Shown in pieces: positions 42,720 through 64,000 of a stretch of 64,000 nucleotides of DNA. This DNA comes from Aplysia californica (Eukaryota). The stretch's first letter is position 1, and each line of letters opens with the position of its first letter. The notes below the pieces were generated by a model. The model had not been told where the DNA came from and searched no databases. It saw only the letters and a program-made list of their open reading frames with translations. A program made the position numbers and the translations under genes. Location: positions 1,723,987-1,787,986 of the forward strand of contig NW_004797299.1 of NCBI RefSeq assembly GCF_000002075.1. Direction: 5' to 3'.

Positions 42720-43959
42720 GGGGGGGGCAAGTGAGTCTTAGGTCTAAATATAAAAGAATAAAGATAGAGCTTTGTAACTTGGCGCACATACTTTTATTTC
42801 TGTTCCTAGTCACCATGCAGAGTAACACACTTCTGCCACCTCTCTTTGACCTTCAAAAGTCCTTGAGAGAAAAATGACCCAGAATGGGCCCCTAACCTGT
42901 CTTTAACAGCTTCAACGGTGTCAACGTTGTCAGGTAAACGACATTATATAAATATTTGTTTAAGATAAAGAAATATAAAAAAGTCTGAGAGGGCTAGGTC
43001 TGGGAATAAGCTGGGTGAGGCAGGATTTCAAAGCCGCAAGCTTTGCTATCTGGGCTGCTTGTTGTGCCCTGAGCGCAGGGGCGTTGTCATGCAGTAAGAG
43101 GACCCCATTGTGGAGTTTTTCAAGCCTTTTTCTCACTAATTCATGAAATGCTGACCCTGACAAATGTTTGAATAAAGCCATAACGTGCCGACAGGGGAGA
43201 CGGAAAGCTGTGAAGAAGCGACATGAGCAACTATAACCATTGGGAGTGAAATATGAGTTGTTGCACTCTAAGACGCTGATGGATTTAATCTGAACGCTCT
43301 CTTTCTCAACCAGCTTGTACGCTTCAGGTGTTAAAACCCCTTGGTACGCCCTGTCATCATCGATGTCGAGAAGTTGGATTCGCATCTTCACAGAATCCAT
43401 AATCGTTGAGTGTGATTGACGCTGGCGAAGAGTTCGAACAAGAACAAAGATCCTCTCAATGAGGGCTTTGAGGTCGCTTCTTGATGTGACAACTGACTTC
43501 AGCTTTTGAAACACTGACTCGATCCGGTTATTCGTGCCAGTGTTGAAGTTGAAGGTCTGGCACTTAAAAGCCTCACACCATTCTTGACGGATGGGGTGCC
43601 AGTTCTGGTTGAAGTAGTTTTCAACTGAGCGCCCAAACTCATTTAGTTGACTATGCTTTGCACTGTATTCCTCCTCGGTTTTAGGCAATTTGCTGGAGGA
43701 GATCCAAGAGCCTGGTTTTCGGCTCTGATGTTATGTTGGCTTTCGCAGTAGTCATCTCTCGGGCAAATGTCCGTAAAACGTCCGAAAACAAGTCTTTCCG
43801 TGAAGGCCTTATCGGAAATGACTATTTTTGTCTCAGTCCACCTGGCCTCAGAATAACATTGAGAATGTATCTAGCTTGAGATTATTATTCTTTATATTGC
43901 TGTTCATTTATATTATGCATGTGCCTGTAAGCCTGTGTGTGTGTGTGCATACGTGTGTG

Positions 43960-44021
<62 letters not shown>

Positions 44022-47000
44022 TACGTGGTGAAACAACAAACCGATGTGCCAGGTACTGGGCAATAAAGATGTATGTCATCTTGTCTTATCTTATTTACAC
44101 AATTAATTGAACAAAATTATTGAAAATATATCAGCTTTGATGTTTTCAATGACTTTTCAAGATTTTTCAGTTAAATTACGGTTACACAGACTTTCAAAGT
44201 CTTTGAAATCAAAATGCTATTTTTAAAAAGATTTTCATAGGGTTTTCAAAGATGTTTTGTCGTCTACCACAGTACAAAGATTTTCATTCAATATCACAGC
44301 CCTCACCTTGAAACTTTGAATCATTTTACGCAATGTGACCTCATCTTCCTTTGCTACAAGAAAAAAAGCATAGGGTGGGTTTCCATGTTTCCATCAATAA
44401 TCACAATGGAATAGAGGGGCATGTCCCGGCGACTGACTTTATAGGTAGTGTCCACAAGTAGCACTTCAGGGAATTTTGCAAATACCTCTTTCATCTGTTT
44501 GTCTTGGAAAAAAATTCCTATAACTTCATCACCACTTCCATTGATACAAACGATAGGTATTCAGACACAAACTTCCTTAATTCCTCCAATTCAGAATTAT
44601 TTTGAGTGCTACAAGTTGCTCTGGAGATGTTGTGGATGTCCTTTAGCAGAATAGCCTTGTTTGTATCTTCTTCAACATGGGCCTGTATAAGTTTTTTTGT
44701 TCGCATCTAGCTTGACCATCTCCCGTACTTTATTTGTTTGCTTTGTGTCTAGACGTCTTTGTGAGAGATAGTGCCTGAATTCCTCTGGGGTACATTCAAG
44801 GTTGTGATTTGGGCCGTGATGAGTCACAGTTAGAAAATCTCCATCCAACGATCGTAATTTAATGGCGAATTCACAGCCGTTCTGAAATGTAGACTGATTT
44901 GGGCCTTCACCTGTAGTGGGATGATGCCTGTACTTGCCATTCTTCACACAGGCAAAGACAATACTAAGTTCCTCTCTGAAGACTCGATTTTTTACCTCCT
45001 TCTTTAATGAAATGCAGTGATTTTTTTACACTCTTTTTTATACAAAAATTAACAAAGTTTTCACTTTCATACAGTTTCGTGGCCTTCTCCTGATCTCCGT
45101 AGGAAGCAAACTTGCTACCCATAGACAGTAGGGCTGTACCCTGGTAGCAAACCCGCTCGTGCTCACAAACCCCTAGTTCAAGTCACAAGCCTCAAATCAC
45201 TAGGTCANNNNNNNNNNNNNNNNNNNNNNNNNNNNNNNNNNNNNNNNNNNNNNNNNNNNNNNNNNNNNNNNNNNNNNNNNNNNNNNNNNNNNNNNNNNNN
45301 NNNNNNNGCCCCCCCGGAAAAATTTTTGAAAATATGCTTAAAATAGTGCATTTCTGGGCCATTTTATAATGATCACAAACTTTGTGGAGGGGAAAAAAAG
45401 TTCACATTTTAACCCAATTATTGTTCTGTCAGTACCCACAGAAAAAAAATATAATGAAGTATTACTTTCAAACCATTGATAAAGATGTAGAAAAAGTGAA
45501 TAGTAATGAGATGAAAGACAGCAACTATTTAGCTACACATGTGTTCACCTACCTTTTAACAGCTTGATTTGAGCTTCAGGAGGGGTTGAGAATACATTTA
45601 ACTGCATGGGCTACTTCTTGAAGAAATCCCTTATGCAGGACTTCTTCTTGTGTGGCTGGGTGGGCCCATCATCTTGAGTCTTCCTCTTTAGACATTGTGA
45701 AGTGACGGTAGCTTGCTGGGTGGAACATGTGGCTGTCACTATCTCTTCTGGCTTGGAGGAGGTGCTTGCATTAACAGCACTAAGTGATGATGTAAGGCTA
45801 CCAGTATTGTTCTCAATGGCTGCTCTTGCCTCATTTGCCCTTTCATGGATAGATGTAGTAGTTTTCTTAAACTTTGGAATCCTTCTGACTTGTGACTTTT
45901 TCACAGACTTCATCCTTTTTGCTGCTGTTTGCATATGGTAGCATAGAGAAGGGTCTACTGGAGAACAGACAGGATCCTCTCTGTGGTAAAACTGGGTAGA
46001 CTTCTTTTGATGATTAAGTAGCTTGTATTTAACTTTTTGGATGGCCTCATATGTCTGCACTTGAGTTCTATTTGTGGTGTTTGTAATTACATTGTTCATA
46101 ATACTAAAAGAGGATTCAACCCTGGGCCCTGTGAAAATGGACAAGCAAGCCTTGATGACAGGACCAAGAATAGCATACTGCGGATTGTTGAGGACAACTG
46201 ACCACCACTTGTCCAGTTTTTTCTCCTTGATGGTAGAGGTGAATTTAGTGTCATTCTGAAGGGAAGAAGCAGCTGTTGTAAATGTGTCTTTCTGAACATT
46301 ATCTGTGACTTTAGGAAGGAGATCAAAAAGGTCCTGCAGTCCGGATGCTGCTCTACTGTGACCACAGAGCTCTGGGTCAAGAGTAGACAAAAGTTGAAGG
46401 TTTTTATTCTTGATAGGGAGTTTCTGGATAAGGTATGCACTGGTCTCCCGATATGAAAGTAAAACAGTCTTCATGTGGGCCTGGGCTTCAGATCTTCCCA
46501 TTTCTTCTAAAATTAATTTGGCAGCATCTCCAACATACACTCTATCCAAGGTGTGAACGTTTTCAGAGTAGGCATTGACTTTGAAAATGTGACAGCTGTT
46601 GACATACTCATGAGTCAGGAAACAGGTTAAAAAAGTTTTCAGGACCAGAGTAAGCTCATCATGGAGCCTGTGCACCATCGGCTCTTTCTGTTCGAACGTC
46701 AGAATGAAACTCTTGAAAAGAGGTAGGATGCTGACAAGGATGTTGGCAACTAAAAGGCTGCGCTGTCTTTTCTTGATAAGCCTGTCTGAGATCCTCTTCT
46801 TTCTTTCTTTCCCAGCAGGAGTTAACTTCTTTGACTTAAGCCTCTGAAGAATACTTAGAATGTTGAGCCTTGAGTCTTTCCTTATACCTTGTAGGATTCT
46901 TGTTAGCAGTGGTTGCTGTTGCTGCTTTTCCTCAACTGTCAACCATGACGAATAAAAAAGAGTCAGAGCATTGTGGATTTCAAAAAATCTAGCGGAAGCA

Positions 47001-50000
47001 TCATAAATTGACATCCATCTGTGACTGGCTCTTTGAATCGGCACTAGTTCAGCGAGTCCAAGATGCTTGCATATACACTTCAGATCATCACGCAGATCTG
47101 CACTGAAGTCCATGTCATTGTAAAGATCATCTAACAGTCTAGACAGCATCTCAGACGGGTCAAGATTGGACGAGAATTTCTTCACAGCATTGTGAATATG
47201 GTGACACACGTCCCCATCGATATCCATAACATGAGGTGCTACTGCCTTGAGTCTAGCATGAAATCCACTGACAGAACCTCTCATATACGCAGCAGAGTCG
47301 GACAGAGCACTAACAAGGTTTGTCAGAGGGATCTGGTCCTCCTTGAGTTTGTTACGTACAGCATCAAACACAGTCTCAGCATTGACAATCGTCATCTCCA
47401 CACTGGAATACAGATCACAAACACATTTCTTCAGCTCCTCAGAAAAGTAACTAACAAGGACATTAAGAACTCTCTTGTGTGCTGCTTTTGATGTTGATTC
47501 ATCAAGGTTAATGGAGAATGGTGTCTTCTTCATTATGTTGACCAGACGGACGTGTTCAAGATAGGAGAGGCCATAACGAAGTTTATAAGTGGCTGTTTGT
47601 CGTTCCATATGTAGCTGTGATAGGGCCTTGCTATCCTTAGACAACTCTTTTGCTAAATCAATAAGATGGGGGGCCATTGTCATGGATATCGTGTGCTCTG
47701 CCATAAATGAACAGAGAAGAGCTTCCTGGTGTGATACTCTGTCTTTCAAGGAAACAGGCTTACTTGGGTCAGTTGGTACTGTTAGAGTTGAACTTGAACT
47801 GCTGGGGATGCCTAAACATTCCAGATTTGGGGCCGCCCCATACGGCAATGTCTGACAGGTTGCACTGGAACTACCGTCTATCCTGTCCTTTGTTGCTTGC
47901 ATTGCTGCAGGGAGTCGCTGGTTCGATTTCTCGATAGATCGGTTTCTGGTGTGAACCCTTGTCTTGGCATGGTCCCTAAAACAACGTAAACCTCCACTAC
48001 GGTACTTGATTTCCGTTTTGCAATAACAGCACCAAGCTACACCATCTTTCCCTACCTTGCGAATGTAACCACTCAAAAAGTCATCATGATCGTCTTTGGT
48101 TGATAACCATTCCCATCTAAACTTGTTCTTACTTGAAACGTCGATCACATCGACAGGAGCATTGCTTTCAACAAACTTCATGGAAGCCGCCATGTTGAAT
48201 GAATAAAACAATGAACGCGAGATATTGCCAAATAGGGCTTAGAAAGTCAACGAACTCGGGCGCGCACGGCGATTTTTGTCCTCGCTAAAAGGTCTAAGCC
48301 TAGATCTACGTTGCTTGGACAACTTTCACTTCTCGTTCATAACGTGCAATTCACATGACTAGGCCTAGCTAGCAAAAATAAAGAATAGAAAACCCGTGAA
48401 AAGTCATTGCACATTTAGTTGACATCAGCTAACATTATGGCTGAATCGGCTGGACCCTACCGACCTGGCATATTTTGGTCAACACTGCCCCACAACGAGT
48501 CGTCAAATAGCTTCCGATTTTTTCCGCGGAATCCGAGGAAAATCTCGGACCAAAGTTTTAATAGTCCTTCCGATTTTTTAAATCGGAAATATGTTCGTGA
48601 ATATAGTCGATCAAAGCCTAAACCAAACAAAGTGCGTGAAAAGAGTGTGTGCGGAGTGAGACTCCGTGCTCAAAGAGTGTGCATTGCTTACATTAACTTA
48701 AAACAAGGAGTCACTCATAACCTGGCCTATTTAATTAAAATAGGCCTAGATCTAGATTCTACATTGTAATTTTCTGGAATTACATAGTTAACAGAGTTTC
48801 TAATTTTCTCATTTCCACACTCCCTTTTCAACCCTTATTGAAATTTCTGAAATCAGAGAAAATCTGAAGGATTTACATCCCTGTCAATCGGCATGACGTC
48901 GGAGAATAGCTTCCGATCTATTGACCGGCGTGGGCGCCAGAGAATAGCTTCCAAGATCGGAGAACAGCCACTGGCACTAATCGAAACTCAGCGTTTTACT
49001 TAGCACTGGCGCTAATGGCAACGCAGCGTTGTAAATAGGCACTTCCGAAAAACAAGAAAGCGGCTATCCTCACCGGGGGTGAGAATAAAAATTAAATACA
49101 ATCGACCTCTCACCCCAGGTGAGACTTGCCACTGTTGGCTATTCTCACCCGGTGTGAAACAAGGCCTGTTTTTCCTAATATCGAAATACTTTCTATCCGT
49201 GTGGATGATCAAAAGGATAAAAGCAAAGAAAAAATTACGTTATATATATAGCACAAAAATAAGCTAATTTGATCGTTTACAAAGATGCTATGGCTATTTC
49301 ACTTTTCGAATCAAGCCGAACTACGCGGGTCACCATTTTGTTTTGCTCGGAAGTTCTTGCAAGATCTACTTTTCCCCTCTTCTCTCTCTCTGTCTCTTTC
49401 TGAATACTGTCTATCGGTGTGGACGATCAAATTAACCAAAACAAAGTTTAAAAATGATGATAAAACACAAAAGTAAATTAATTTGGTCGTCTACAAAGAT
49501 GCTACGACGGCTATTTAACTTTTCGAATCGAGCCGAACTACGCGGGTCGCCATTTTGTTTTGCCCGGAAGTTCTCGCGCTACTTCTCTCTCTCTTTCTCT
49601 CCACTGCCCACAGACAAAAGGTAAATTTTTACTTTCACTCCCGCACACAGATGCAATGTTTCAGGGGTCAAACTGCAGTAATGCTTGCTGCAAATCACAC
49701 ATAAAGCCACTAAAACTGTCGCAAATCAATTATTTTCAAGACAATTTCAAATCTAACTGTAAAATATCAAATTATGGGTTAAAACAGGGGGGCATGCCCC
49801 CCTGTAACCCCCCAGATTTTCTTTTACCCCAGTGGGGCAGGCCCCCCTGGAACCCCCCGATTGGTCCAAAGCATGTCGATATCGGTTAAAAACAATCAAA
49901 TATTTCAAAAACTATTAATTTGCAACGGGAATGAAGTTGATATTCATGTTCAGCGCATCAATATTTAGTAGAAATTAGACAACTGGTAGCTGAGTGTGAG

Positions 50001-50663
50001 ACGGGAGGGAAATTAAAAAATACCAGACAAAATTGTACACTTTTAGACTAACAGTAGTAATGGAACGTTTGTTCACGGCACAGAATTCTACAATTTTTCT
50101 GTTATCACAGTGTAAAATTCTGGGGTTCAGGGTTAGCGCAAAATTGGTTGGCCTAGATCTAGGCTATAACGGTGAATGCACACCGGGTGAGAATAGCCAA
50201 AAGACTCGCCTGCCGGGGTGAGAATAGAGGTGGCCAAAAACAAACATTTTTGTGCATGATTATGACTATGATGGTTTCATTGAACACGCAGACTTGTGCC
50301 TTATTATTGTTGGATTCTCCCGAAAATTTGCATGGTGTGTTTCAAAGAAATTGTCTTCATGATCCCTTCATACCCAGACCAAAGACTATTTATAAATTGA
50401 ACCCCCCCCCCCCCTTTTCGCATATATAGTCTAGATCTAGATCTAGATATATAATCTAGATCTAGATCTAGATCTAGATCTAGATCTAGAAAATCTAGAT
50501 CTAGATTCTAGATCTCTATATATAAAGTTTGAGAGCAGACTAAACTTCTACTGCTGACACTGCGTCTGCTGTGATGCTGTGTGAAATCTCTCACTCACCC
50601 ATAGTGTTCAATGTACGGGCTGTAATAAAAACCATTGTTTCCATCGCCGTTAAGAAGACCCAT
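34061..50663 (-). CDS. R3HDM4: R3H domain-containing protein 4 homolog, 7 exons, 295 aa
   Basis: Exons: 50599-50663 (ACCATGG; MGLLNGDG...; GG|GTGAGT), 41000-41184 (RKRGVRRTRRVDN), 40071-40198 (LKYLINLEE), 37308-37476 (FWNAFMESSEEDQRRVL), 35902-35987 (PAFTPKECYGRV), 35226-35367 (SSYERLLLHALCQYLNL, the R3H motif) and 34061-34173 (FRPPSLLLSEYL*). All introns are GT-AG with consistent phases, 888 nt in total. Exon 1 is assigned by phase and lies across a 100-N gap, so it is less certain. Confidence 0.9.
38615..38773. mobile_element. Small piggyBac-type MITE
   Basis: TTAA|CACCTTGCCCCC...GGGTGGAAAGTG|TTAA. Confidence 0.7.
38792..39901. mobile_element. hAT-type MITE, copy 2 (same family as 11969-12800)
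   Basis: CAGTGGCAGTGGGT...CACCACCACTG with TSD CTTATATG/CTTAAATG. It is colinear with copy 1 apart from a nested insert. Confidence 0.9.
39072..39348. mobile_element. piggyBac-type MITE nested in the hAT MITE
   Basis: TTAA|CTCTTAAGACCC...GGGGTTTAAAGAG|TTAA. Copy 1 of the host MITE has a single TTAA at the same site (~12252). Confidence 0.85.
42719..43143 (-). mobile_element. 3' end of a mariner element (same family as 15289-16627)
   Basis: Reverse complement matches 16190-16627, including the TIR. It encodes ELVRKRLEKLHNGVLLLHDNAPA and sits next to (TA)n. Confidence 0.88.
43144..45130 (-). pseudogene. MULE/Mutator (ZSWIM3-like) transposase pseudogene with a (TG)n-containing intron
   Basis: Encodes a FAR1-like segment (GCEFAIKLR...HNLEC), FAKFPEVLLVDTTYKV, VISDKAFTER, YFNQNWH..RQEW, TNNRIESVFQKLK and a SWIM finger (CSCRFFTAFRLPCRH). 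Donor AAG|GTGAGG is at 44307/44306. Frameshifted. Confidence 0.85.
45208..45307. other. Assembly gap (100 N, true size likely unknown)
   Basis: 100 N. Confidence 1.
45308..48883 (-). mobile_element. Candidate autonomous hAT transposon in R3HDM4 intron 1
   Basis: The 5' terminus CAGGGATGTAAATCC (minus strand) ends at 48883. A hAT-like subterminal GCCCCCCCGGAAAAATTTTTGAAA abuts the gap, where the other TIR is presumably lost. Confidence 0.7.
45611..48193 (-). CDS. Uninterrupted hAT-like transposase, ~860 aa
   Basis: Single ORF with likely start AACATGG at 48193. It has a BED-like finger (AWCCYC...HAKTRVH) and the motifs FSINLDEST, SDSAAYMRG, DVCHHIHN, RWMS and LSIFTGPRVESSFS, plus a basic C-terminus. 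Confidence 0.85.
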   Translation of the reverse strand: MAASMKFVESNAPVDVIDVSSKNKFRWEWLSTKDDHDDFLSGYIRKVGKDGVAWCCYCKTEIKYRSGGLRCFRDHAKTRVHTRNRSIEKSNQRLPAAMQATKDRIDGSSSATCQTLPYGAAPNLECLGIPSSSSSTLTVPTDPSKPVSLKDRVSHQEALLCSFMAEHTISMTMAPHLIDLAKELSKDSKALSQLHMERQTATYKLRYGLSYLEHVRLVNIMKKTPFSINLDESTSKAAHKRVLNVLVSYFSEELKKCVCDLYSSVEMTIVNAETVFDAVRNKLKEDQIPLTNLVSALSDSAAYMRGSVSGFHARLKAVAPHVMDIDGDVCHHIHNAVKKFSSNLDPSEMLSRLLDDLYNDMDFSADLRDDLKCICKHLGLAELVPIQRASHRWMSIYDASARFFEIHNALTLFYSSWLTVEEKQQQQPLLTRILQGIRKDSRLNILSILQRLKSKKLTPAGKERKKRISDRLIKKRQRSLLVANILVSILPLFKSFILTFEQKEPMVHRLHDELTLVLKTFLTCFLTHEYVNSCHIFKVNAYSENVHTLDRVYVGDAAKLILEEMGRSEAQAHMKTVLLSYRETSAYLIQKLPIKNKNLQLLSTLDPELCGHSRAASGLQDLFDLLPKVTDNVQKDTFTTAASSLQNDTKFTSTIKEKKLDKWWSVVLNNPQYAILGPVIKACLSIFTGPRVESSFSIMNNVITNTTNRTQVQTYEAIQKVKYKLLNHQKKSTQFYHREDPVCSPVDPSLCYHMQTAAKRMKSVKKSQVRRIPKFKKTTTSIHERANEARAAIENNTGSLTSSLSAVNASTSSKPEEIVTATCSTQQATVTSQCLKRKTQDDGPTQPHKKKSCIRDFFKK
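49060..50232. repeat. Non-autonomous element with inverted subterminal motifs and an internal ~215-bp direct repeat
   Basis: GCTATTCTCACCCGGTG (49138) versus CACCGGGTGAGAATAGC (50181). Direct repeats start at ~49186 and ~49403 (AATACT.TCTATC.GTGTGGA.GATCAAA...GCCGAACTACGCGGGTC). Confidence 0.65.
50233..50420 (-). mobile_element. 5' end (TIR and leader) of the mariner whose 3' end is at 42719
   Basis: Reverse complement matches 15289-15475 (CCTTCATACCCAGACCAAAGAC...TTGAACCCCCC...CG). Confidence 0.85.
50430..50515. repeat. Palindromic (TCTAGA)n microsatellite
   Basis: About 12 copies of TCTAGA/AGATCT, ~85-170 bp into R3HDM4 intron 1. Confidence 0.9.
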
Positions 50664-51055
50664 GGTTAAAAATACTTTTTCTGAACTAGGAAACAACGCG
50701 TGGAAATTAAAATCAAGTCTAAAAATGTGTCCTGATGGTAAGTCGCCAGTCGACCGCAGCCCAGCAGGATTACAGTCACTGATGAAATTATTATTAGGAA
50801 GTATAAAAATTTCCAATCAAAATAGAAGATTCTCGAAACAAAATATCAGATATAAAATATTGCAGACGCTTTTATTATATATCAAAATATAATAACTCAT
50901 CAGTATGAAAAAAATATCATATCCATTTATTATCAGAATTCATGTACATTTTGAGAAAGAAAGTTTATACTTCAATGTCATAGGTTTGTACTGCAAACGG
51001 TGGCGAAATCAATGTTTTGTAACAGTCTTGACAACAACCAACACAAGACTCTCTT

Positions 51056-51113
51056 AGGTCAAAGGTCACATGCACGGGGCACGAGTGAACTGAAATCTAG
51101 AGGTCAAAGGTTA
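51056..51113 (+). promoter_or_regulatory. Two DR1-type nuclear receptor half-site repeats upstream of R3HDM4
   Basis: AGGTCAAAGGTCA (51056-68) and AGGTCAAAGGTTA (51101-13). These could also be repeat-derived. Confidence 0.3.
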
Positions 51114-51389
51114 AAACTTAAAAACATGCACAACGGTTGTTTTTCATAAGTCGTCAGCATTTTTTTTTTAAAGCGTATCCCTGCTAGATCAAGATCCACA
51201 CTGTTTCAACTCACCTATGCTCTGTTTACAGTTTTCGATGTGTGTTAAATGGAACGATGGATTTTGCTGAAGAGAGCAGAGCAACGGGTTTCATTAGCGA
51301 AGTGGCTAGCCGTGCTCTACTGGCCAGTCCGGAACGCTCGTTACTGCAGTCCTCCCGCTAGTCTAGCCGTCCTTATAAAGTATAAAGTA

Positions 51390-51489
51390 NNNNNNNNNNN
51401 NNNNNNNNNNNNNNNNNNNNNNNNNNNNNNNNNNNNNNNNNNNNNNNNNNNNNNNNNNNNNNNNNNNNNNNNNNNNNNNNNNNNNNNNN
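51390..51489. other. Assembly gap (100 N, true size likely unknown)
   Basis: 100 N. Confidence 1.
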
Positions 51490-51529
51490 AGCAGAAAAGC
51501 CCCGACAGGTCCATGCCAAAGCATCGCGG

Positions 51530-52943
51530 CAATCCCACCGCCTCCGGTTCCGAGTGCACTCCACAACGAATCAATCCTTTGTGGACCAACGAATGCAGCA
51601 AAGTCAAGTAGCCGTTTTATGTTAACTGCTGAAGCTGGTGACAGTTCAGACTGGTGGTGGTGAAGGTGCTGCTGCTGGTGGTGGTGCTGTTGCTGCTGCC
51701 CGGGGTGCTGTTACTGCCACTGGTGGTGGTGCTGTTGCTGCTGCCCGGGGTGCTGTAGAAAAAGTACGGCTTGGTGCCAGTTTGTCAGCGTGCACCACCC
51801 TTTCAGGGTTGTATGGGTAAATCCCACTCTTAGCAAAGCCGTTGAAGGCAACCTCAGGTCTTGTGGTGGCGTCCCAGACAGGCTTCAGTGCTGCTGTGAA
51901 GGTCCTGACACTTATGCTTTCTCCTGTTTGATTCATGACCTTTTGGCACTGTTCCCCCCAAGCCTGCTTCATGGCCCCAAACAGAGATTGGTCCAAGGGC
52001 TGGATGATGTGTGAGGCGTGGCTCTTTAGGCAGTAGAGCAGTATCTGCTCCTCGATGCAGAGATCGATCACCTCAATGTTGGAAGTGTGCGAGGTGTGGC
52101 CGTCGACGAATAGCACAACCGGTTTCCTCTTGTGGGCGACAGCTGGTACGAAGCAGTCCCTGAGCCAGGACATAAACACGTCGGTGTTTATCCATCCATT
52201 GGGAGAAATCTGGAATTTTGCCTCTGGGAAGCCAGCCATCAGATCGAAAGCAGTCTCCTCTTGTAGGGGAAGATTATAAATGGTACGACGTAGTGGCCGT
52301 TGGCAGAGCAACACGCAAGTACGGTGAGGCTCTGCTTGGTGTTGCTGGAAAGGTTGTAGACATGTTTACTCCCTTTTGCTGCTACCACTTTTTGGGGCTT
52401 GGGGCACAGATGGAAGCCTGTCTCATCGGCATTGTACAGCCGATCCGGTGATGTGAGGAGTGTTGGATCTACGCTGTCCAAATATTCCTTCATGTCTCGA
52501 AACCAGGCAGCCAGTCCGTCCGGCGTTACCAGGGCTCGCTCCTTCCCTAGAGCTGATGGCGTCCTGCTAGAAAGGTCTGGGTTCCTTTTAAAGAAGTCTT
52601 TTAGCCACTGTTTGCTCGGACGGTTGTCAGGGCTACTCGTGACTGCCTGGCGTGAATCAAGAATAGCCTTGACGGTGTCCTTGATTTCCTGCTTCGACTT
52701 TCCGAAACCTCTCCTGGCACACTCCTTGAGCCATTCGCTGAGCTTAAGTTCCTCTTCCCTAGTGAGTAGGGTACGCGGCTGGGGGTTAACAGGCCGTCTG
52801 CCTCGTACCTTGTCCCCGAGAGTAGCATATGGAATGCCGAAAGCCTTGCTTGCTCCATTGAGGGACATGGATCCATCTTTGACGGCTTGTATGGCCACCA
52901 GCAATGTCGCTTGTGTATAGGGATGTCGAGGTACTGGTGCCAT
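51530..52943 (-). pseudogene. pogo/Fot-like transposase (HTH-psq + CENP-B HTH + DDD) with a frameshift near 52280
   Basis: Encodes SLNGASKAFGIPYATLGDKV, LTREEELKLSEWL, LYNADETG, FVDGHTSH and IIQPLD (36 residues between the last two Asp), then an Ala/Pro-rich repeat tail. Confidence 0.9.
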
Positions 52944-53965
52944 GATGTTGAATAAACTGGAGAAAAAAAAATCGAAGGTATCCATTAGATACAGAGCAGA
53001 AAAAAAATTATTCCTGTAAATGAACGTGAAAGTAGAGTTATTTAGATAGCTTATAAAGTTGTCGGTTTGACTGTTGAGACGTCAGGGGCACGGTAAGGAT
53101 GTGTGTGTGTGCATGCGTGCGTGAATATTGTTTATTTATGTAAAGCGCATAGAGCTGTGTTCACACGGGAGTGGACGCTACAGAAAGGATCTTCATTATT
53201 ATTATTATGTATCCAGAAAGATAATAAACAAAGCAGGTCTTCTCTTAAAAAGGGGAAAGATGATAAACGAAGGGTAAATCTATAGATCTAGCTCAGAAAG
53301 GCTTAAAAGTCTAAATTACAGTTAAGAAAGTAAAAGAATAAGTTGTCAGATGCGTAGTCTAGTAATTTACTGGTCTTTTAAATGGTAAGAAGCAATCAAG
53401 ACTAGTTAGCGCATAAGAATCCTAATTTAAAACAGGTCATATCCATCCGCTAAGTCCTGGCGCATAACATCCAAATTCAGGTCACGGGAATATTCATGCG
53501 CTATCCTCGTGATCAACCAAAGGGAGGCTAACCTCGGCCTGAAATTATAATTAGACATGAGATCATCCCTATTTTTACCTATTTAGGCCATGCTATGTCT
53601 TGTGGGAGAATATTGTCGAATGCAAAAGCTTGCTATCATGACCCTGTTGCTTAGCAATTTTGTAAAAAAGTAGGATGAAACAATTCTTACCTCGATTTTC
53701 CGGGACAGTGTCAACAACGAAAGTGAAAGCGCCTGTGCAAAGGGCTGGAAACGACCGGATGTTGTGATGAACGAAAATTCGAAATTGAAACCGGCGATAT
53801 CAATTAGATTCCGCAAAATAGATTCAGTTTGATTACGTAATCAAGCCGGCCATTTTGAATATATTATCAGCCCAACAGATATCGAGTTCAAATTTTTATG
53901 ACGCTAAAATATTGAATTATCAATTAGATTCTGGTAAGAGTGTATTTGACCATCTGTGAATGATA

Positions 53966-54214
53966 TGAACCTGATAAGATGAAAGATATGGGCATTTCAA
54001 GAGTGCAAGAAGAAAATTGTGAAAGGCACTGGAGCAGCCAAAATCGGATGTATTTTCGGATCGCACAGGTGGGTCAGCGCAAGTCAAATATCTGAACCTG
54101 ATAAGAGGAAATATATGGGCATTTCAAGAGTGCAAGAAGAAAATTGTGAAAGGCACTGGAGCAGCCAAAATCGGAGGTATTTTCGGATCGCACAGGTGGG
54201 TCAGCACAAGTCAT
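53966..54214. repeat. Tandem duplication of a ~127-bp unit
   Basis: TGAACCTGATAAGA...GGGCATTTCAAGAGTGCAAGAAG...GGTGGGTCAGC starts at 53966 and 54093. The two copies are nearly identical. Confidence 0.9.
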
Positions 54215-54663
54215 ATTTTCTAAATAACCAATGTTACGAGTGTTTTGAAATGGAACAAACTTTGAAAATACTGTAAGCTGTGGTGGGAAAATTTACCATT
54301 GACTAGTGCTAGTTGTAAATGTGTGGTGTTTGCGTTTGATAATTATCTGAAAAATAACACGTATGTCCTGACTGTGACGGAACAAAATATCAAGGTTAGT
54401 AATACTCACAACATTGAACACAAATATTAGTATGAAGTTTGAAGTAAAAGATCAACTTACCCACTGAAGTCTTGAAGATTTTCAGGTAAGTATTCCGTCG
54501 TAAAGAATTTCACGTACACCCGCAGAGAATTTCACACAACACATTTGAAAAACATTTCAGAAGGCCTAATACAATTGGGCAGAGGAAAACCCCCCCACCA
54601 AAAACCCCCCCCAAAAAACCCCCACACACACAACTATGTACAGAACTCCCAATTCCAGAATCC

Positions 54664-54880
54664 TCACTGCATCAGCTGCTCTCTTGCAGCCTTGATGTCC
54701 TTTGCAGTGTGATATATGCGGAAACAGTCCTCGATACAAAGGGCAACATTGCACTCCGGGCAGTAGTGTCGGGTCTGGGCACGTTTTTTTACCGTGGCAC
54801 AGACCTTGCACACAGGGCGGTGCTTGGCATCTGCAAACTTTGAAGGGGAGTGCCCAAAAGCTGCTGCACAGAGGCTGCAC
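54664..54880 (-). mobile_element. piggyBac C-terminal cysteine-rich domain fragment
   Basis: CKVC...QTRHYCPECNVALCIEDCFRIYH. Confidence 0.85.
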
Positions 54881-56310
54881 ATCTTCATCAAAATGTTCAC
54901 AATTCTCTTAATAGCAGAGGCAGGCATACTGTATTCAAGTCCGAAAAAATTTTGGAAATGGGACAGCATCCAGGCTAGTCGTCTCCGGCAAAAAACGGTG
55001 TCTGAGTTCTTTAAAAAATATGACAAAAGCACAAAGTAAAGGCATTCCTCTGAAGGGCGTGTTAGATCGCCACGGTTGATGGCATCGAAGTATGTCTTCA
55101 TCTCGTCGTCACAATCGGTAAGTGTTCCAGACAGTTCCGGGTGGTGGTGGGCTACATAGCCAGCAATGTAGTAAATAGCCATTGTCTCATCTGGAGACAT
55201 TTTGCTGGTGGAAAAATCCTCAGCCATACCATCAATAAGTTCGAGGTCTTTCAGGGGAAATGGCTTTTCACACAAACTACAAGAGTGGATAGTATTGGTC
55301 TCTTCACTTAAGTCAATTAGGGACAAAAGTAACCTTGCTCTGTCCAGGGCATGGGTGCTAAAAACTTCCCTCACAGTTATGTAATAATTGCACCCAGCGG
55401 AGCGCCTGAAATGGCCGAAGTGGTGTTCCAGGTCATCCTGTTGCCAATCGCCAAAGCAGACATACTGGTGACGGTAGGCCTCTGTTGTTGTGATGAGGTG
55501 CTGAGCTAAAGCAGAAAAGCCCCGACAGGTCCATGCCAAAGCATCGGCAGTGTTGACAGTTAAAGATTTGACCCTGACTCTGCCGCTTGCTCGCATTGTC
55601 TGGGCAATATTTGCCCACTCTTCTAAAAGTACTCTGGCCCTCTCACCATTTACCCCAGTGTCATACGGGATTCTGTCAGGGTCATGGAGATGAATATGTT
55701 GTGCTGGCGACTTGCAGTTCCACAGCTTCCACAACTTCAGAACAAATGTAATGAAGCATGCAGTGTCCTTCCATCGATCCGTGCTTCCTGCCGATGTCAC
55801 TAAAGCACTTCTCGTTTCATCGCAAAAAACTTTCAGTGCAAGTTATACCTTCTGCTTTTCTTGGTTGGAAGGCTGCACACACACTTTGTTCAACCTGGAG
55901 AGCTTGACCGGAGCACCTTCTTCTTGCTGGTACAACTCTTCAAGCGACGCCCATGTCGCTTCTTTCCTTTCACCGCTCTGAGAACCATTTGAGGGGAAAC
56001 ACAGAGTTTTCGTTTTGTCTGATCCAATTATTTCGAATGTTCTTCAGTAAATTATGAACAGGATCAAAAAGAAGAAAAAGGGGCTTTGATGGATGGCTTA
56101 AAGAAGGAACCACCCAGGGTGTTGAAGCGGTAAATCCAGGAAACTATTTAAAATATATGACTGATTAACCTTACTGTTGTCATTTATAATACCAAGAACA
56201 GTCGCACCTGATTTCTCCAATGATTGAATAAGCTCTGACACAATATTATATTGGAAACGTGAAGAGAGCGCATGACAGGGAACCATCTTTCCTATAAATT
56301 TCTTGCCAGT
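54880..56310 (-). pseudogene. P-element/THAP9-like transposase fragment
   Basis: Encodes GATVLGIINDNSKVNQ, FLFDPVH..KNIRNNW, EKQKV*LALKVF, QQDDLEHHFGHFRRSAGCNY, YYIAGYVA and INRGDLTRPS. It has stops and frameshifts and lacks the THAP N-terminus. Confidence 0.85.
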
Positions 56311-56619
56311 ACATGGATCACATACTTCTTGATTCGAATCAACACCAGCACTTAATAATATCCTGAAAACAGAATTTATGCCATAAAGCACAATAATAGT
56401 CAACTATCACATTCAAATCGGGAGCAAGGCTAATGAAACACACTCTGAATGAATACTTAAGAGCACGCACACAACACAGCACGGCACGCCATTGTCTACG
56501 ACACCTTGTTAGCCTTGTAGGCCTACACTCGGTTCAAATTTGCCCCCGGCCTTCTCGATAAGCCCTCTCGACCCTTTGTTTACATTCGGCTGCTGTTCCT
56601 GCTTTAGTTCCGATATCCT

Positions 56620-57112
56620 CGGGTCAGGCCGAATGACATGGGCGAAGTTGAAAGTCGAGCTGCTCTCCACCACAGCAGCAACTTTAGTCCTTTGCAGCCG
56701 CTTCTTAATAAGACCAAAGCACCAGTCCGGGCTAAGCTTGGGTGTGGCCAGTAATCAAAAAACTCATTTTGATGCTACAGTGACGGCTAGTCGTGACACG
56801 CCACAGTAGGTAATTCATCATCACGCTGTTCTTATTCTGTCCCGAACAATTGTCAGCATGAATGTGGAGATCCTTTTCACCAAGTCCATAGTTGCTAAGG
56901 AAGTGGTGAAGCAGGGAAATCACACAGTCAGCACCTTTGCCGGGCGAACACGCTTCGTCTATCGAGTAGTTTATCTGTTTAGATAATGCTTCACAGTGGA
57001 TCCCGAAAAGCCCACACTTCCTGGGGGTCTTGAAGTAAGTGGGCCCTGACTGAAGTGGGTCGGACGAGTACTGCACTTGCTGTGCAAAATCAAAACTGTA
57101 ATGGACAACACT
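56620..57112 (-). pseudogene. Sola-like DDD transposase catalytic fragment
   Basis: HYSFDFAQQVQY...YFKTPRKCGLFG, GKGADCVIS, HADNCSGQNKN, ITGHT, then a frameshift to PDWCFGLIKK. Confidence 0.7.
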
Positions 57113-58138
57113 ATCTTATTATTGTAATAGAAACCCAAAATAATAGTGTAATCAAAACAAATGAGCGTGTAAGGCTACACCTGATACAACACATGTAAAA
57201 GAAGTATGTGTTTCGTGGTAGAAAAAATGTTGTTTAGGCTTGTTCTCACAATGAAAACTAGGCAGTAACCAAATAGTAGAGTAATTACAACAAACAACAA
57301 GAATTTGTTAGACTTTTTTACAACAGAATGTGTTCCTTTTGTTTTTTTTACCTTCCACAATATAAGGAAAGGGTTCTAATGAACAGAAGATGGGGGCTCT
57401 TGTCTGTCCGCCATCTTGAATTACTCTCTTTTGTACAAAAATCAAAGCAAGAACAAAAGAATTCACCTCTATAAGCTAAATAGAGGGCATATATAAATGT
57501 ATGCAGCTCGAATTGCGATGTCTGAGAGCCAAAGGGAGGCTCCTCCAGCAATATTAGCCCTGGAAACGCTCACCGTGTTACCGGAAGTGAACCACCAGAA
57601 ATGCCCGGTCGCCACGGCCGGTTGTTTACAAATATGGGGGTGTGGCAGACGGCAGAGCTATCAGCTGAGATTTTTCCTGCTCCTGAAAATTGACCATTTA
57701 CGGCTAAATGAATGATAAAAGACTAAAACCATATACTTTCTGAAAGCTGATATAATGAGACATTAAAAAATAATACTTATAATGATGGAAAATATTTTTA
57801 TGTGTTTTTTTTTCACAGGTTAGAAATTTGAATTTTCAAGTTTTACAGGTATTTGGACAAAAATTAAAGACAAAGATCTACTTATGTGACTTACCTTGGC
57901 AAATAAATCATTTTTTTAACCATCAGAAACACACCACAGTAATAGTAATCCACTTTGAATAGCACAAACCTGAAAAAGAAACAAAAAAATATTCTCCCCC
58001 TCTCAGTCCCTGGCACTGAATATCAGTTTTATAACCAGGTTGCTGGCTTGGGACTGTCTCACCCCATTAGGAGTAGTCCTAAAAAGGGCTGTTTGGGGGG
58101 GGGGGGGACTGTTCACTCCAGCTGCTGCTGCCTCCTCT

Positions 58139-59592
58139 TCAAACCACGCTTATATTATAGTCCCTGCAAGAGTGGTAAATTTTGAAGCAAGGGGTGATAT
58201 GCAGGCCTACTTTGCATGATGGGCACTCATAGCGTGAGTGTTTGCACTTCCCAGTTTCTGAGCATACGACGCAGTCACTCTGGGGGGTTCTGAACCTTGG
58301 CACCTGGCTTGGGTACGATGAGTTCAGCAAAGTGACGACCTGTCAGGCGGAGAAGTGCGGATTCCCGGAGCTCAGTGGGACTCGTGGTGTTGCTGAGAGG
58401 GGTGGGCATGAAGGAAATCAGAAGCTTGGCCAGCTCCTGGGGGAAATTGCGGTGGGTAAACTTCTTAGCAGAAGTAGCTTTGTGCACTTAGTGCACGATG
58501 AAAGCGTTGAGGACGCCCAGCATAAACTTATGGGGAAACGCCTTCTTCCACCACTTCCCCCGAGTCTGTCGCTTGAAAGCGTTGTAGCTGACCATCTGAT
58601 CGCTCCGATCAACCGCTCCCATGTATTTGTTGTACTCGGCAACAGCTAGGTAATTCCCTGGTGACGGGGTTTGTGCGGCCTGTGGTAACGATGTTGTCAT
58701 TATGCGCTGAGGTCAGCACATTCTCTTCCCTCTTGTCAAAGAACCTCAGCAAGTTGAAAGTGCCGTTAGTGAGGCTGACTGAGGGGTCGCCCTTCTTCGG
58801 TTTCGGGAGCATATACTTCGGAGGGGCCATGTCTTTTGTTCAGTCGAAGAGTTCCACAGGCCAGAGTGCGCTGGTTCTTCAGAGAAGTGAAGAGGTCGTG
58901 ACTTGTGTAGTAGTTATCCACGTACAAGACACGACCACAGCCGAGGAAAGGCGTTTTGAGTTGGTCAACGACGTCGTACGTGGCTCCGAACGTTGAACTG
59001 TCCTGCTTCCCGGTGGAAAACTCCAGGTTGGAGCAGTAGCCCGTTGCGCTGTCACACAGTTCAAAATCTTTGATGCAGGACTTGTCTGGCTTGTTTGGGT
59101 TGTAAACCCGGAAGGCAAGAGGACCCCTCCAAGCCACCGTGGCCCCATCTAAAGCGATGTTCCTTCCCGGCTTGAACACACGAAGAAAGTTGTCTTTCAG
59201 GCTGGTGACAAAGTTTCTGATCTTGAACAACGGGTCTTGGTCAGCTTGTCCTTGTGGCACCTGCTCCCTGTTGTTGCAAACATGAAGGAAGGACAGAATC
59301 AGGCAGAAACGGTCCCACTTCATTATCGATCGAAACAGTGGCAGGCTGAAGATCTCGTCCTCGCTCCAGTACTCGTCGAGATCGTCAATGACGACGAGGC
59401 CCATGGCTATCACTAGCTCGAAAAAGACCCACATCTCCTTGACGGTCACGTCCACCCGGCTTTTGAAACGGGAAGAAGGACTCGCCTCCTTGTCCTGCAA
59501 AGTGTCGGCAGCATATCTGAAAAATAAAGATAAAAACACTCCCATCTATACTACTCATCACCTCGCTCGCTCTCTCTCTGTCTCTCCCTCTT

Positions 59593-59634
<42 letters not shown>

Positions 59635-60042
59635 ACAGACACTCAAATCACCTGTCTGTCTCTGTGACGATGGACTCCATCATCGTCCTGTTGATCATGA
59701 GGCTCAGGTAGTCAATGGAGTTGCATCTGGCTCCATTTCCACTCGGAGACTGGGGTCTCCAGTGAACGAAAAGTTGATTGGGGTTGACGATCCCTCTCTC
59801 CACGCTCTGTTCTCTTCCTTCTCCCTGCCGTTATCCTCCTCATCGGGTCGTCTTCGATTGATGGGAGGGACGTTGCTCTGAGTCGAAGATGGCGACTCAG
59901 CAGGCTCCTCTATGTCAGAGTCGGCGTCGACAACTGACAAAAACTCGGTGATGAATGACCCACTGGGCCCATCAGTCAACAAACTTCTCAGCACAGAGGG
60001 ATTACTGAGATCCAATACCTCGAAACCAGAAGGCAATGCCAT
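58139..60042 (-). pseudogene. piggyBac (PGBD4-like) transposase pseudogene with one intron
   Basis: ATG at 60042. Intron 59517-59651 contains (GA)n and splits ETDR|YA. Motifs: DPLFKIR, IALDG, YNPNKPDK, YVDNYYTS, YNKYMGAVDRSDQ, and CRD CVVC...CPSCKVGLHITPCFKIYH. Several frameshifts. Confidence 0.9.
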
Positions 60043-60311
60043 TGTTATCAGACAAAAGGCGTACAACAAAAGGCTCCGAAAGCTGTTCAAGAGTTGAAGT
60101 GATGCAGATCAAAGGCAAACAGCAGTCAACAAAAGACGCGCAGTTTTTTTTTCATTCTTTGCCTATGTAAAGATGAGGGATAAAAGTTTTTTTTCTTCTA
60201 TTTTTAGATACCAAATAAGTAGGTCACATATGCAAATGAACAATCATACGCACATCCTTGTGTTTTTTTAACTGCTGTGCCGGCAAAGGTAATCTTTTCC
60301 ACCATGGCCAA

Positions 60312-61000
60312 TCTAGTGCAAGTTTAGCTCTCAAGCAGTGCTGATTGTATGCACCCTCTTCCACATTTCCCTCCTCAAAGCCTACACAAAGATCACACCT
60401 GTCTTTTCGAGGATGGAACAATGACAGGTTCATAGCATTGAACTCTTCCTTAAATTTGAAGGTAAAAAGTACCCTAACACCCCACCACCTTCCCCCCTCC
60501 CCCGACTCATACTTTTCTTATACAAACGGCGGTACACTGCCTATAAGCTCTGGAAAACAGGTTCCAAGTGTAACTTACTGGAGTCCTTCCGACAATAGTG
60601 AGATGGCAACTTGGACAGATCGCGAAGAAACTGTTTAAGTGCTTTTGATTCTGTAGTCTCCACCCTCGCCCTTTCTCTCTGAACTGGAACCACTCCGTCT
60701 GCTATACCAAACCCACATGTGATTACATTGTGAGCCCACCAGTTACAGAGTCCTGTTGTACTCAGAAAGAAAGCCTTTCACACTTTGACTCTGGCCCCAT
60801 TCACCCGCAGATGGTACTTCATGAAACTTGACCTTTTGCTTTCTCCCTCCTTTTTCTCCAAAGGCTCGACAGTCGACCAACCCTTTAATAAAAGCAGCCT
60901 TTTCAGGACAAAGTACAAACATAGTCAAACGCCTCCTTCGGAGCAATGCGTTATCGCTGTGATCCACTATGGCGGGCGACCTAAACGAAATAGACTGTTA
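60312..61000 (-). pseudogene. Sola1-like transposase N-terminal/central fragment
   Basis: Degenerate KVKV.K.F.., SKLPSHYCRKDSSKLHLEP and NLSLFHPRKDRCDLC...YNQH. Confidence 0.65.
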
Positions 61001-61439
61001 GAATTTTTCTGTCATGGAAGCCAGTCGAATTTTTTTTGGTCAAAATTTTTCGGGATTTTAATAGGACGTAGCCATTCGTCGTGTTGATGTATTTTAAGGA
61101 AAAACGCATTTTGAGAAAGTCTTGGAATTAGATGATTAGAATTCTTGGCCGACGATATCTAAGCTGTAAAGTTGCAATGGGAGGTAAAAACCTGTTATGT
61201 CTCGTAAATAACTGTAGACTAGGTTATTATTTATACCCACTCTATGCATTATCATTAAGCAATTTATAGGGACCAGAAGCTAGGCTAGATCTATTTAAAG
61301 AAAAAATTGGTTATACACATATTAAGATATTAGTACTTAAGATTTTAGATACCAAAAAAAAAAACCCAACGAACAAACAAAGCCTGACTTAGAAAAGTCT
61401 AGACTTATAAATATTTGAATTTTGTATTTAGCTATTTTT

Positions 61440-61770
61440 AAAAAAAGGTCCCTACCTTAAGAGTGGACATCCATTTATCAGCTGATAAAAATGAACTGCT
61501 TGCGCAAGCAAGTGTACGAACAAACTCCGCCTCTGCTCTGGTAGTATCGAGTTGGAGGTCGTCAGTGTTTTTTGCCCCCACAGTCCCAGCCTGCTTCAAC
61601 ATTTTAGAAGCATCCTGGTGTTTCTTGAACTGCTGTGCCGACAGAGGTAATCTTTTCCACCATGGCCAATATTGATCTCTGCATGACCTGTCGTGCAGAA
61701 AGCATACTGGGAACCTTTGACACAACTGGTCCTACCCGAAATTCGGGTCGGTATTTGTTCAGATGCCTGG
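61440..61770 (-). pseudogene. hAT transposase N-terminal (BED-finger) fragment, with a 60-bp second copy at 60253-60312
   Basis: NKYRPEF..., YAFCTT..AEINIGHGGKD.L.RH, KKHQ and TTRAEAEF. Shared DNA CTGCTGTGCCG.CA.AGGTAATCTTTTCCACCATGGCCAAT. Confidence 0.7.
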
Positions 61771-61774
61771 CTCT

Positions 61775-62140
61775 TAAAAAGAGCAACAAGGCTTTTACTC
61801 CTATTACTCCTGCGACAAGAGTGTATAACGCTACCCCATTGCTTTGATAACTCGTTTTGATCTAACTCTGATAAATGAGTTTCCTGTAAACCTATTACAT
61901 CTAACTTTTCAGACCCGAAATTTTTTACCACTGCTGTTTATTTCTTATGGTTTTATAATCCCCGTACATCTAGTGTTCCTATCTTGAGTAGTTCCTGTAA
62001 AATTAACTTCGTATTACCTGCCATGTCGCTGTTCGTTCTTGTAGTCCGAGTGTACATTCATTGTCGTCATCTTGGTCCATCCACCCTTAATGCTTCTCTC
62101 TCCTCGTACATCTAATGTAGCGATCTTCAGTGGTTCTTCT
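61775..62140 (-). mobile_element. L1/Tx1-type LINE endonuclease N-terminal fragments
   Basis: LKIGTLDVRG, KLDVIGLQETHL...W and SNRSK.LVALF, with a second LKIATLDVRG at ~62100-62135. Confidence 0.7.
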
Positions 62141-62375
62141 AATTTTATGAACTTACTCTATTCCTTGAGGTAATATCGCTGTTTTATCTCGTAATAGCCA
62201 GGTTGGGTGCTTTGTCGTCTTCCATTGTCTAGTGGCCATTGCATCCTCTTCCACAGAGGTCTCATTCTTATCGGAGATCTCATGCATGCACTGGTTGACC
62301 AGTGTGTATCCTCTTCTTTCCATCCCTTGTCGACAGACTCGTCCTTAGGATCCTCCACTTGCGAACCGAACCCAA

Positions 62376-62443
62376 CTTTTTTTCGCGCGCTCATATGACC
62401 TTTTGCAGTTGCGAGCGCCGCAATACTCTTACTAAAAAAAAAA
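62376..62443 (+). mobile_element. Isolated LINE/SINE 3' tail
   Basis: GCGCGCTCATATGACCTTTTGCAGTTGCGAGCGCC, nearly identical to 63901-63935. Confidence 0.8.
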
Positions 62444-63149
62444 CCCTGCTGGCTGTGTGTTGTAGCACGAGCTCCTTGACACTGGGAGCCTCCCCGCCGG
62501 TGACCTTCCCTACTAAAATAAAGCTTAGCTATATATATATATTAGAGCCAGCCTGTATCTTATTAGTAATATCAGGGAGGGGCTGAAAGTCTTATTTAGG
62601 GTGGCTTCAAATTACACTTTGTAAACACATTTCTAAGTTGATTTTAAGAATAAGATTAAAAAGAAATTGGCAGTGAAGAAACCAATCATGATAGTAACTC
62701 AGATGTGACCAAAATTATGAAATTTGACTTTAGAAGCTCCTGGCTCAAAACTAGAGCCAGCGACTTCCGGCAGATTATCCCAGACGGCCACACATATTAC
62801 ATATTTGTATTTACATTTAATCTTATCTTGTTTCATTTTGTTGTACATAATGTATATATGACAGAAAATTATAAGAAAAACTGAGAATTTTGGTTTGTAT
62901 GTCATAATGATTTTTGTTTGTTTCCCTTGTTCAGTAGCCGAGTTATTTATCTAGTGCACCAAAATAATTTGTCTTTTTTACTTGGATTCTGGAGAGGATT
63001 TTTTGCTTGTTCTGTGTTAGCAAAAATAAAATGAGGTACTAACTGTACCTGTTTTTTTCTAAGTAAAGTGTGTTTGTATGTATAATATGTTGACATGAGG
63101 CTGCTTCTAAGTGTAGGTATTATCTGTGTTTAACTGTACAAAGAGAATT

Positions 63150-63962
63150 GATTCCTTATCCTATCTGACTCTCTGTCTTGCATCCCCTCACTTACAAACT
63201 ACACTCTCTTATACCCAAAAATAGGCTAGGTTACAACAACAAAATACACGCTTTGGCTGAAACCGGCAAAAGTATCGTGTTCACATGGCTACCTAGCCAT
63301 GTGGGCACCCAAGGAAATGAGCAAGTGGACCTCCTGGCGAAAGAATCCTTGTCCGTTCTGTTGGGATCAACTACGAACACTCTCCCACAGACTAATTTAA
63401 AAAATAAGTAAAAAACTACATCTCCAGTCTGTGGGAGACTCATTGGAAAAAGCAAGTATACAACAATCTTCACTACAGTAAGCCCGAACTGGGACCCCAA
63501 AATCCTCGGGCTTCTCCAGAAGAGACGAAGTCATTTTTACTCGATTACACATCAGACACAGGTCCCTGACACATAGGAGACCTCCTTCAGGGAGATGAGA
63601 AACCGTTTACCATTAGACACATATTTTAAAAGAATGTCTAGATTTTGGAGAGGACTGAAGGAAATATTTTAGATGCAAAAAATTGCAAGATATGTTTTCC
63701 GTCGTTGATCCCAACAGAATCCTTCATTTTGTATAGGCCGCTGGCCTTTTTGGAAAATTTTGAATCAGATTGTGTAAAAATTTTTATGTTATTTAAAACG
63801 GTATTTTAAATTAAGAATTTATTTACATTAAATTTTTAGCATTTTAGTAGAGGTGTTGACCGGAATCAGTATACAGTTGCGAAAAGAATCAACTTTTTTT
63901 GCGCGCTCATATGACCTTTTGCGGTTGCGAGCGCTGTAAAACTTACTTAAACTAAACTAAAA
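63150..63962 (+). mobile_element. 3' end of an I/Nimb-type LINE (RNase H + C-terminal domain)
   Basis: Encodes FTWLPSHVGTQGNEQVDLLAKE, then degenerate RRDEVI.TRL.I.H..LTH and TIRHILKEC. It ends in a 3' hairpin and an (AAACT)n tail. Confidence 0.85.
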
Positions 63963-64000
63963 AGTAAGAATGAAAAATTAGTTAGAGAAATCTATCCAGG

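Follow-up and report, generated by a model that had tools for sequence, protein, structure and literature searches.

Transposon traps that feed PIWI-interacting RNAs (piRNAs) are already known as an architecture from flamenco, mosquito read-through clusters, mammalian piC-DoGs and slug clusters, and the origin and transcription of piRNA clusters is an open question outside flies and mice. In mosquito core piRNA clusters and mammalian piC-DoGs, according to the portions of the papers available, packed antisense fragments sit right after the end of a host gene, have no promoter of their own and give poly(A) RNA (10.1101/2022.08.22.504762; PMC11615739). Among gastropods, the ovotestis clusters of Arion vulgaris are mostly uni-stranded and packed with antisense transposon fragments (PMC11615739), and the clusters of Lymnaea stagnalis are enriched for young DNA transposons (PMC6128900), both as given in the accessible text. 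Here we describe a patchwork of transposon pieces, the block, at 51490..62160 of a 64,000-nucleotide stretch of Aplysia californica DNA (the window; assembly GCF_000002075.1, contig NW_004797299.1 or C29, 1723987-1787986), where it lies head-to-head with an R3HDM4-like gene. Judged from its sequence and layout, the block is probably a uni-strand piRNA-cluster-like trap, a head-to-head variant that would likely be transcribed on the plus strand from a promoter shared with R3HDM4.

Six-frame reading, Pfam searches and comparison with dispersed copies resolved 11 transposon pieces in the block, all on the minus strand, which account for 9804 of its 10671 nt (92%). At least five transposon superfamilies are represented, and no long terminal repeat (LTR) piece is among the assigned 92%. 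Percentages below are identities to fetched loci (L numbers).

51490..62160, coding strand minus: whole patchwork of co-oriented transposon pieces, with DNA depth near single copy
51490..51526, minus: P-element snippet of 37 nt, a 100% copy of 55510-55546, running into an assembly gap
51527..53799, minus: pogo/Tc5-type element (Pfam DDE_1, HTH_psq, HTH_Tc5), 89-98% to L013
53798..54875, minus: piggyBac family A, C-terminal zinc finger (zf-Tnp_2, E 2.5e-4) and 3′ subterminal repeats, 79-87% to L016
54882..56311, minus: internal piece of a P/THAP9-type transposase, 97% to a longer copy with THAP and transposase, L012
56312..56620, no strand: filler without assignment, with no donor among the fetched loci
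56621..57111, minus: internal piece of a Sola-type (DUF7869) transposase (Pfam E 1.2e-9), 88-89% to L018
57111..57391, minus: 3′ subterminal piece of piggyBac family C, 86% to L028, where it lies downstream of the transposase match
57554..60144, minus: piggyBac family B, near full length (DDE_Tnp_1_7, E 3.5e-48), 87% to L011
60253..60312, minus: hAT-type snippet of 60 nt, a 92% copy of 61611-61670
60316..61158, minus: piece of a high-copy element presumed to be Sola1-like, ~80% to many dispersed copies
61438..61775, minus: N-terminal zinc-finger piece presumed to be hAT-type
61776..62160, minus: start of a non-LTR endonuclease, presumed L1/Tx1-like (weak Exo_endo_phos match, E 0.019; Atlas 0.78)

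The ten coding fragments listed by the sequence-only reading all exist and all lie on the minus strand, although two are copies made within the block, which leaves eight independent ones; the piggyBac family C piece was absent from that list. Each larger piece has relatives elsewhere in the genome at 80-98% identity, except the hAT-type piece at 61438..61775, for which no other DNA copy was found in the assembly, both of the two candidates lying inside the block. The P/THAP9-type piece is, by its sequence, the youngest of the block; its Pfam support is a TNP-like RNaseH_N match (E 0.004) below the cut-off. The only clear terminus to survive is the 3′ end of piggyBac B, whose 5′ end is cut and whose intron (59520-59640) is retained; the pogo piece, cut at its 3′ end, probably adds an intact 5′ end at a TA. 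A retro-copy origin of the block was ruled out, as the piggyBac B intron is kept. We take the Sola1-like and hAT-BED labels from motif likeness; neither received a name from Pfam, Atlas or the homolog search. The Sola1-like minus frame has 106 protein matches in the genome, and an attempt to name the element through long frames on contigs C565 and C650 found them to be largely N. An Ntox16 match (Pfam E 0.018, below cut-off) was taken as chance.

At L011 (C201:891.5-893 kb), the 87% relative of piggyBac B abuts a Sola-type element oriented the same way, so this family has been caught in two traps, and clusters on C213 and C188 begin with the same Sola family. Because the flanks of donor copies also looked co-oriented, the genome was searched with six transposase families, of which the best candidates were scored (116 of 675 for piggyBac), making all counts lower bounds; from 616 rows, 20 second matches of one element were removed to leave 596, and the window was excluded from pair counts. 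Adjacent transposases of different families lay on the same strand in 31 of 37 pairs under 20 kb (p 4e-5): 15 of 16 agreed when closer than 5 kb, 7 of 9 between 5 and 10 kb, and 9 of 12 between 10 and 20 kb. Agreement was 14 of 29 in the 20-100 kb range and 35 of 63 for pairs more than 300 kb apart. Clustering itself was strong, with 48 adjacent pairs under 10 kb observed against 3.8 expected and 114 of the 596 matches having a neighbour within 20 kb.

The orientation bias held for fragments unused in selection. Across 13 fetched clusters, 33 of 38 such DNA-transposon fragments shared a strand (p 4e-6, an optimistic value since some cluster fragments are tandem duplicates), as opposed to 9 of 20 long interspersed nuclear elements (LINEs) in the same clusters (Fisher p 0.0015). 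Fragment density per 10 kb, clusters versus background, was 2.8 versus 0.06 for DNA transposons and 0.57 versus 0.42 for LINEs. The block itself held four fragments in its first 10 kb when searched with a protein library lacking its own proteins, compared with two in all across 40 random 10-kb stretches (331 kb once N is discounted), 38 of which were empty; its density is far from chance. The sequence-only reading had suggested a genome-wide test of transposon strand bias; the outcome is that the block is one of many such clusters, not unique, and that the bias is confined to DNA transposons, with LINEs unbiased. These results support a strand-biased trap architecture for the block.

For 23 clusters, the flank on which an antisense transcript would originate was examined, opposite flanks being searched coarsely. 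In 13 of the 23, a host gene ends at that flank and points into the cluster, so that the transposons are antisense to read-through; the other ten comprise one likely intronic antisense case (C162, by eye), one head-to-head case (C699, facing a G-protein-coupled receptor gene 12 kb away) and eight with no host. Thus 13 of the 14 clusters with a flanking host show the read-through antisense layout (p 0.002). Nine of the 23 had their flank predicted before fetching, and of these four fit, one did not and four had no host. For several clusters the distance from the last coding exon or stop codon of the host to the cluster start is 1-3 kb, with C208 and C254 further away, and the cluster on C154 may in addition be intronic to a gene on the plus strand. 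The best homolog of one host exon, on a contig other than that of the block, is an Aplysia californica sequence (98%), with other gastropods next. The hosts are as follows; a PDB sequence search named neither of two host exons.

Named by Pfam: Hep_59/C9orf78 (C201), GPN GTPase (C213), PDCD2 (C232), RBR ligase (C154)
Named by Pfam: kinase (C55), trypsin (C136), INTS5 (C188)
Named by Pfam: M24 aminopeptidase (C208), SLX9 (C229), RhoGAP (C546)
Named by homolog search: ABT1/Esf2 (C388)
Recognised by eye only: C198, C254

The usual driver of the class therefore appears to be read-through past the 3′ end of a host, and not the bidirectional promoter first proposed; the present locus, whose visible neighbour is not placed with its 3′ end at the block, appears to be the exception.

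RNA strand was taken from X21 and X22, both raw-read poly(A) runs from a single study. Summed depth over 51404-62027 was +3.85/-0.51 in X21 and +4.32/-0.39 in X22, a plus excess of about 8:1 and 11:1, and over the R3HDM4 intron it was +0.27/-0.83 and 0/-0.63, the read strand flipping at the gap beside R3HDM4. Both are very probably sense libraries, because each run has about 400 plus-strand reads with a poly(A) end at 62420, in a plus-dominated bin, and minus reads occur in the intron of a minus-strand gene. Oligo-dT priming does not explain the plus bias because the block has 5 A runs and 8 T runs. A further run, X2, guessed to be RNA, has a depth of 2-34 over the block outside one repeat bin, compared with 1 at 50740-51403; its coverage extends as far as 63348, with contigs at 54794-55402, 57019-57980, 60982-62416 and 62394-63348; none of the splice joints shown lies inside the block. 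A long unspliced plus-strand RNA antisense to the pieces is thus likely, given the library polarity that we infer:

52068..63348, plus: likely long unspliced transcript antisense to the pieces, from read strand in X21/X22 and contigs of X2; it may run past 63.3 kb

A short, A-tailed, very high-copy repeat that is abundant in poly(A) reads lies at 62356-62443 and 63874-63963, and it also forms the 3′ end of a LINE bearing RNase H (63152-63966).

On the other side of the gap, the minus-strand neighbour carries an R3H domain on its exon at 35227-35367 and is presumed to be R3HDM4 from motif likeness. The features between this gene and the block are the following.

50601..50688, minus: R3HDM4-like first coding exon, from sequence, with its ATG at 50663-50661
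51216..51389, minus: possible 5′ non-coding exon of R3HDM4, a candidate from a donor motif scan with splicing predicted only
51390..51489, no strand: unbridged gap of 100 N, also N in the assembly, the probable site of the shared promoter

The block begins 827 nominal bases from the R3HDM4 ATG, across the gap, in agreement with the initial estimate of less than 1 kb, and the gap noted there as a caveat is present, with none of the listed contigs bridging it. A short gap is suggested by its length being a floor value, as 51 of the 135 assembly gaps have exactly 100 N, the minimum among them. Strong splice donors occur on both strands at 50689-51236 (minus 51215, plus 50738, with a plus acceptor at 51236), where two overlapping first introns are possible. 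The minus donor at 51215, together with single minus reads at 50740-51403, suggests that the 5′ end of R3HDM4 reaches the gap; a transcript start at or in the gap is therefore more likely than the start at 50.8-51.3 kb originally expected. A coding plus-strand gene at 50738/51236 was considered and rejected, as all splices tried by eye stop early and Pfam is blank for 51267-51389.

How such a trap could arise may be sketched in four steps. DNA transposons would land in a zone already covered by host-gene transcription; antisense insertions would be kept since the long RNA then carries anti-transposase sequence, and sense insertions, being expressed or ending the transcript, would be lost; end-joining deletions would strip termini and pack the pieces together; and the RNA would be processed into piRNAs which, bound by PIWI, silence related elements at other loci, the 97% identical P element of L012 being one example. 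Candidate targets in trans are the copies of block pieces at 87-97% identity, and the genome has Piwi-domain genes at four loci, the PIWI and AGO clades being undistinguished. At the sister loci the driver would mostly be read-through past the host 3′ end; if the trap reading holds, divergent transcription is the driver we favour here. On the same sequence-based grounds we lean slightly towards a genome that holds dozens of small one-strand piRNA traps for cut-and-paste DNA transposons, powered by borrowed host transcription, which would be read-through in most cases and the reverse side of a promoter in some.

The strongest competitor, though an unlikely one, is an insertion hot spot under purifying selection with no piRNA output, in which DNA transposons accumulate in the open chromatin near active genes, sense copies are purged because transposase would be expressed by read-through, and antisense copies are tolerated. 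This would account for the nearness to hosts, the antisense bias and the low-level RNA with no need of piRNAs, and the intact hAT, the MULE and the mariner in the R3HDM4 intron indicate that the region attracts DNA transposons anyway. Those intronic copies are, however, sense and yet survive, cluster LINEs are unbiased at background density, and retention fits better with both the orphan hAT-type piece and the 46-fold density, the latter measured in loci that had been picked for being dense. Silencing by another route, for instance 22-nt small interfering RNAs (siRNAs) from pairing of the antisense RNA with transposon mRNA, is a distinctly poorer candidate. It predicts the same architecture, and a 22-nt class matching transposons is reported in the pond snail in the available text of PMC6128900; siRNAs would nevertheless arise from both strands, and uni-strand clusters of such layout with 1U piRNAs are described in a slug in the portion seen of PMC11615739.

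The joins between pieces bear on whether the block is a real chromosomal structure. The butt joins proposed at ~51526, ~54880 and ~60312 were borne out against donor copies, which revealed further joins at 53799, 56311, 56621, 57111, 57391 and 60144; the remaining proposed join, at ~61775, falls in 61158-61775. Joins near 54880, 57111-57554 and 61158-61775 are spanned by contigs of two other runs, X2 and X1, the latter a probable DNA run; the contig pieces shown from these runs do not include the gap or the joins at 51526 and 60312. The joins are at the DNA level because the intron is retained, and they carry 1-6 shared bases or a short insert, one of which is copied from a few bases upstream. 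Microhomology and small inserts are a known mark of end-joining deletion, and the joins accordingly resemble end-joining deletion scars. Capture into a composite mobile element (Helitron or Pack-type), or misassembly gluing repeats together, would also yield butt joins, kept introns and internal duplications in an assembly with many gaps, and Helitron capture, as we understand it, tends to be co-oriented. This alternative is very improbable: no second place spanning the joins at 53799 or 54880 was found (9 of 9 candidates scored), no composite copy appeared among the 39 scored of 1751 candidates in the 927-Mb genome, and X1 depth is 32-189 in 12 of the 16 block bins versus 66 at a unique promoter-side bin, the remaining four bins holding repeats. 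The block is therefore single-copy and neither artefact nor composite, the two outcomes against which the sequence-only reading had been staked. Chance co-orientation with edges chosen post hoc, which the two internal copies among ten pieces and a plus-strand LINE piece starting at 63152, ~1 kb past the chosen right edge, might favour, is scarcely credible and already largely refuted by the 31 of 37 pairs and the independent 33 of 38 fragments. The odds of 1/512 quoted for co-orientation are nonetheless invalid for the locus alone and overstate the local case, because two of the ten pieces are internal copies and the edges were set post hoc.

Several observations weigh against a plus-strand antisense trap driven from R3HDM4. 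The block signal amounts to ~30 reads per run (estimated from depth), and the antisense reading of the plus excess depends on library polarity; in most stranded libraries the reads lie on the strand opposite to the RNA, and were this library antisense, the RNA would be sense to the transposons. One R3HDM4 intron bin contains a high-copy repeat, one minus read falls in 51404-52067, and one X1 contig carries 282 more letters past 51389. A hidden plus-strand gene, a promoter belonging to the block itself or a flipped contig is possible; a hidden gene or a flipped contig would alter the driver and not the antisense relation. Within the R3HDM4 intron, the three DNA transposons are in sense orientation relative to the host and run in the same direction as the block. 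Genome-wide, pairs 100-300 kb apart agree in 29 of 40 cases (p 0.006), which the model leaves unexplained, a replicate with 102 Sola1-like matches gave 3 of 4 pairs on the same strand and is too small, and no host was found on the finely searched predicted flank at C360, C118, C717, C358, C5, C52, C211 and C41.

Additional features were recorded in the window and at sister loci. The same R3HDM4 intron holds an intact 875-aa hAT-type frame (45611-48238, minus, sense to the host), whose X1 DNA depth of 230-266 suggests a few near-identical copies and possibly recent or present activity, and mariner and MULE/SWIM pieces (42720-45025, minus), making three DNA transposons in ~9 kb that the model does not explain. 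The first coding intron contains a palindromic (TCTAGA)n repeat (50426-50519) that at other loci also borders several transposon ends; Rfam returned ten sub-threshold microRNA-like matches for 44000-64000, all on this repeat, and no snoRNA. Farther off lie a thioredoxin-like (nucleoredoxin-type) exon at 22763-23122 (minus) and a secreted-looking, unannotated 208-aa frame at 664-1290 (plus). Mixed-strand neighbours (C102, C557, C657, C847, C360, C136) are arranged plus-then-minus in six cases and minus-then-plus in three, the pattern that a pair of traps transcribed away from a promoter between them would give, in numbers too few to test. The largest cluster (~40 kb on C360, no host found) includes a co-oriented Helitron helicase fragment (L106:5666-6232), and at L223 (C5:2566-2574 kb) a Gypsy-like LTR element shares the strand of adjoining hAT and P matches. 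Close to an ABC-transporter exon (L020:9199-9513, C198) lie several LINE and Sola1-like pieces that all share the strand of the gene, a sense-biased counter-example.

If confirmed, this analysis supplies a model animal of memory research with ~20 named loci for which strand and driver gene are predicted; if piRNAs prove absent, the bias still needs explaining by selection on read-through zones. Should the trap reading be true, such loci would be predictable from sequence alone, and read-through piRNA clusters would extend from insects and mammals to molluscs, suggesting a mechanism old in bilaterians. Neither a published mollusc read-through piRNA cluster nor a DNA-transposon-specific bias combined with host-gene read-through in a mollusc was found in a search that left most subscription papers, cluster databases and supplements outside, where such loci may be listed. 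The titles and abstract openings searched yielded no piRNA cluster placed divergently to a host gene; 'divergent' and 'bidirectional' do not occur in the mosquito paper (10.1101/2022.08.22.504762), nor 'read-through' in PMC6128900.

Compared with mosquito and mammalian read-through clusters, as far as the text seen describes them, 13 sister loci share the layout, several of them 1-3 kb past a stop codon. The cargo there is viral or retrotransposon-derived and here consists of cut-and-paste DNA transposons; this block is head-to-head with its gene and not downstream; and piRNAs are demonstrated there and predicted here. The gastropod clusters resemble the block class in their uni-strand packed antisense fragments (Arion) and DNA-transposon cargo (Lymnaea), and differ in that the consulted portions of PMC11615739 and PMC6128900 give no host-gene link for molluscs. 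Flamenco, the model initially invoked, shares fragmentation and an antisense bias within one class, Gypsy there and DNA transposons here, with other classes unbiased (PMC10643416, in part), but the read-through clusters are closer. Some flam loci, by the same partial account, are 227-1085 kb long, rich in LTR/Gypsy elements, spliced and served by a discrete promoter (PMC10643416); the Aplysia loci are many, 10-40 kb long and gene-linked with no splicing seen, and the block, 10.7 kb of DNA transposons, is not a large Gypsy/LTR-dominated locus. The head-to-head driver proposed for the block would be a rare one, and a bias confined to DNA transposons is the mirror image of the Gypsy bias of flamenco.

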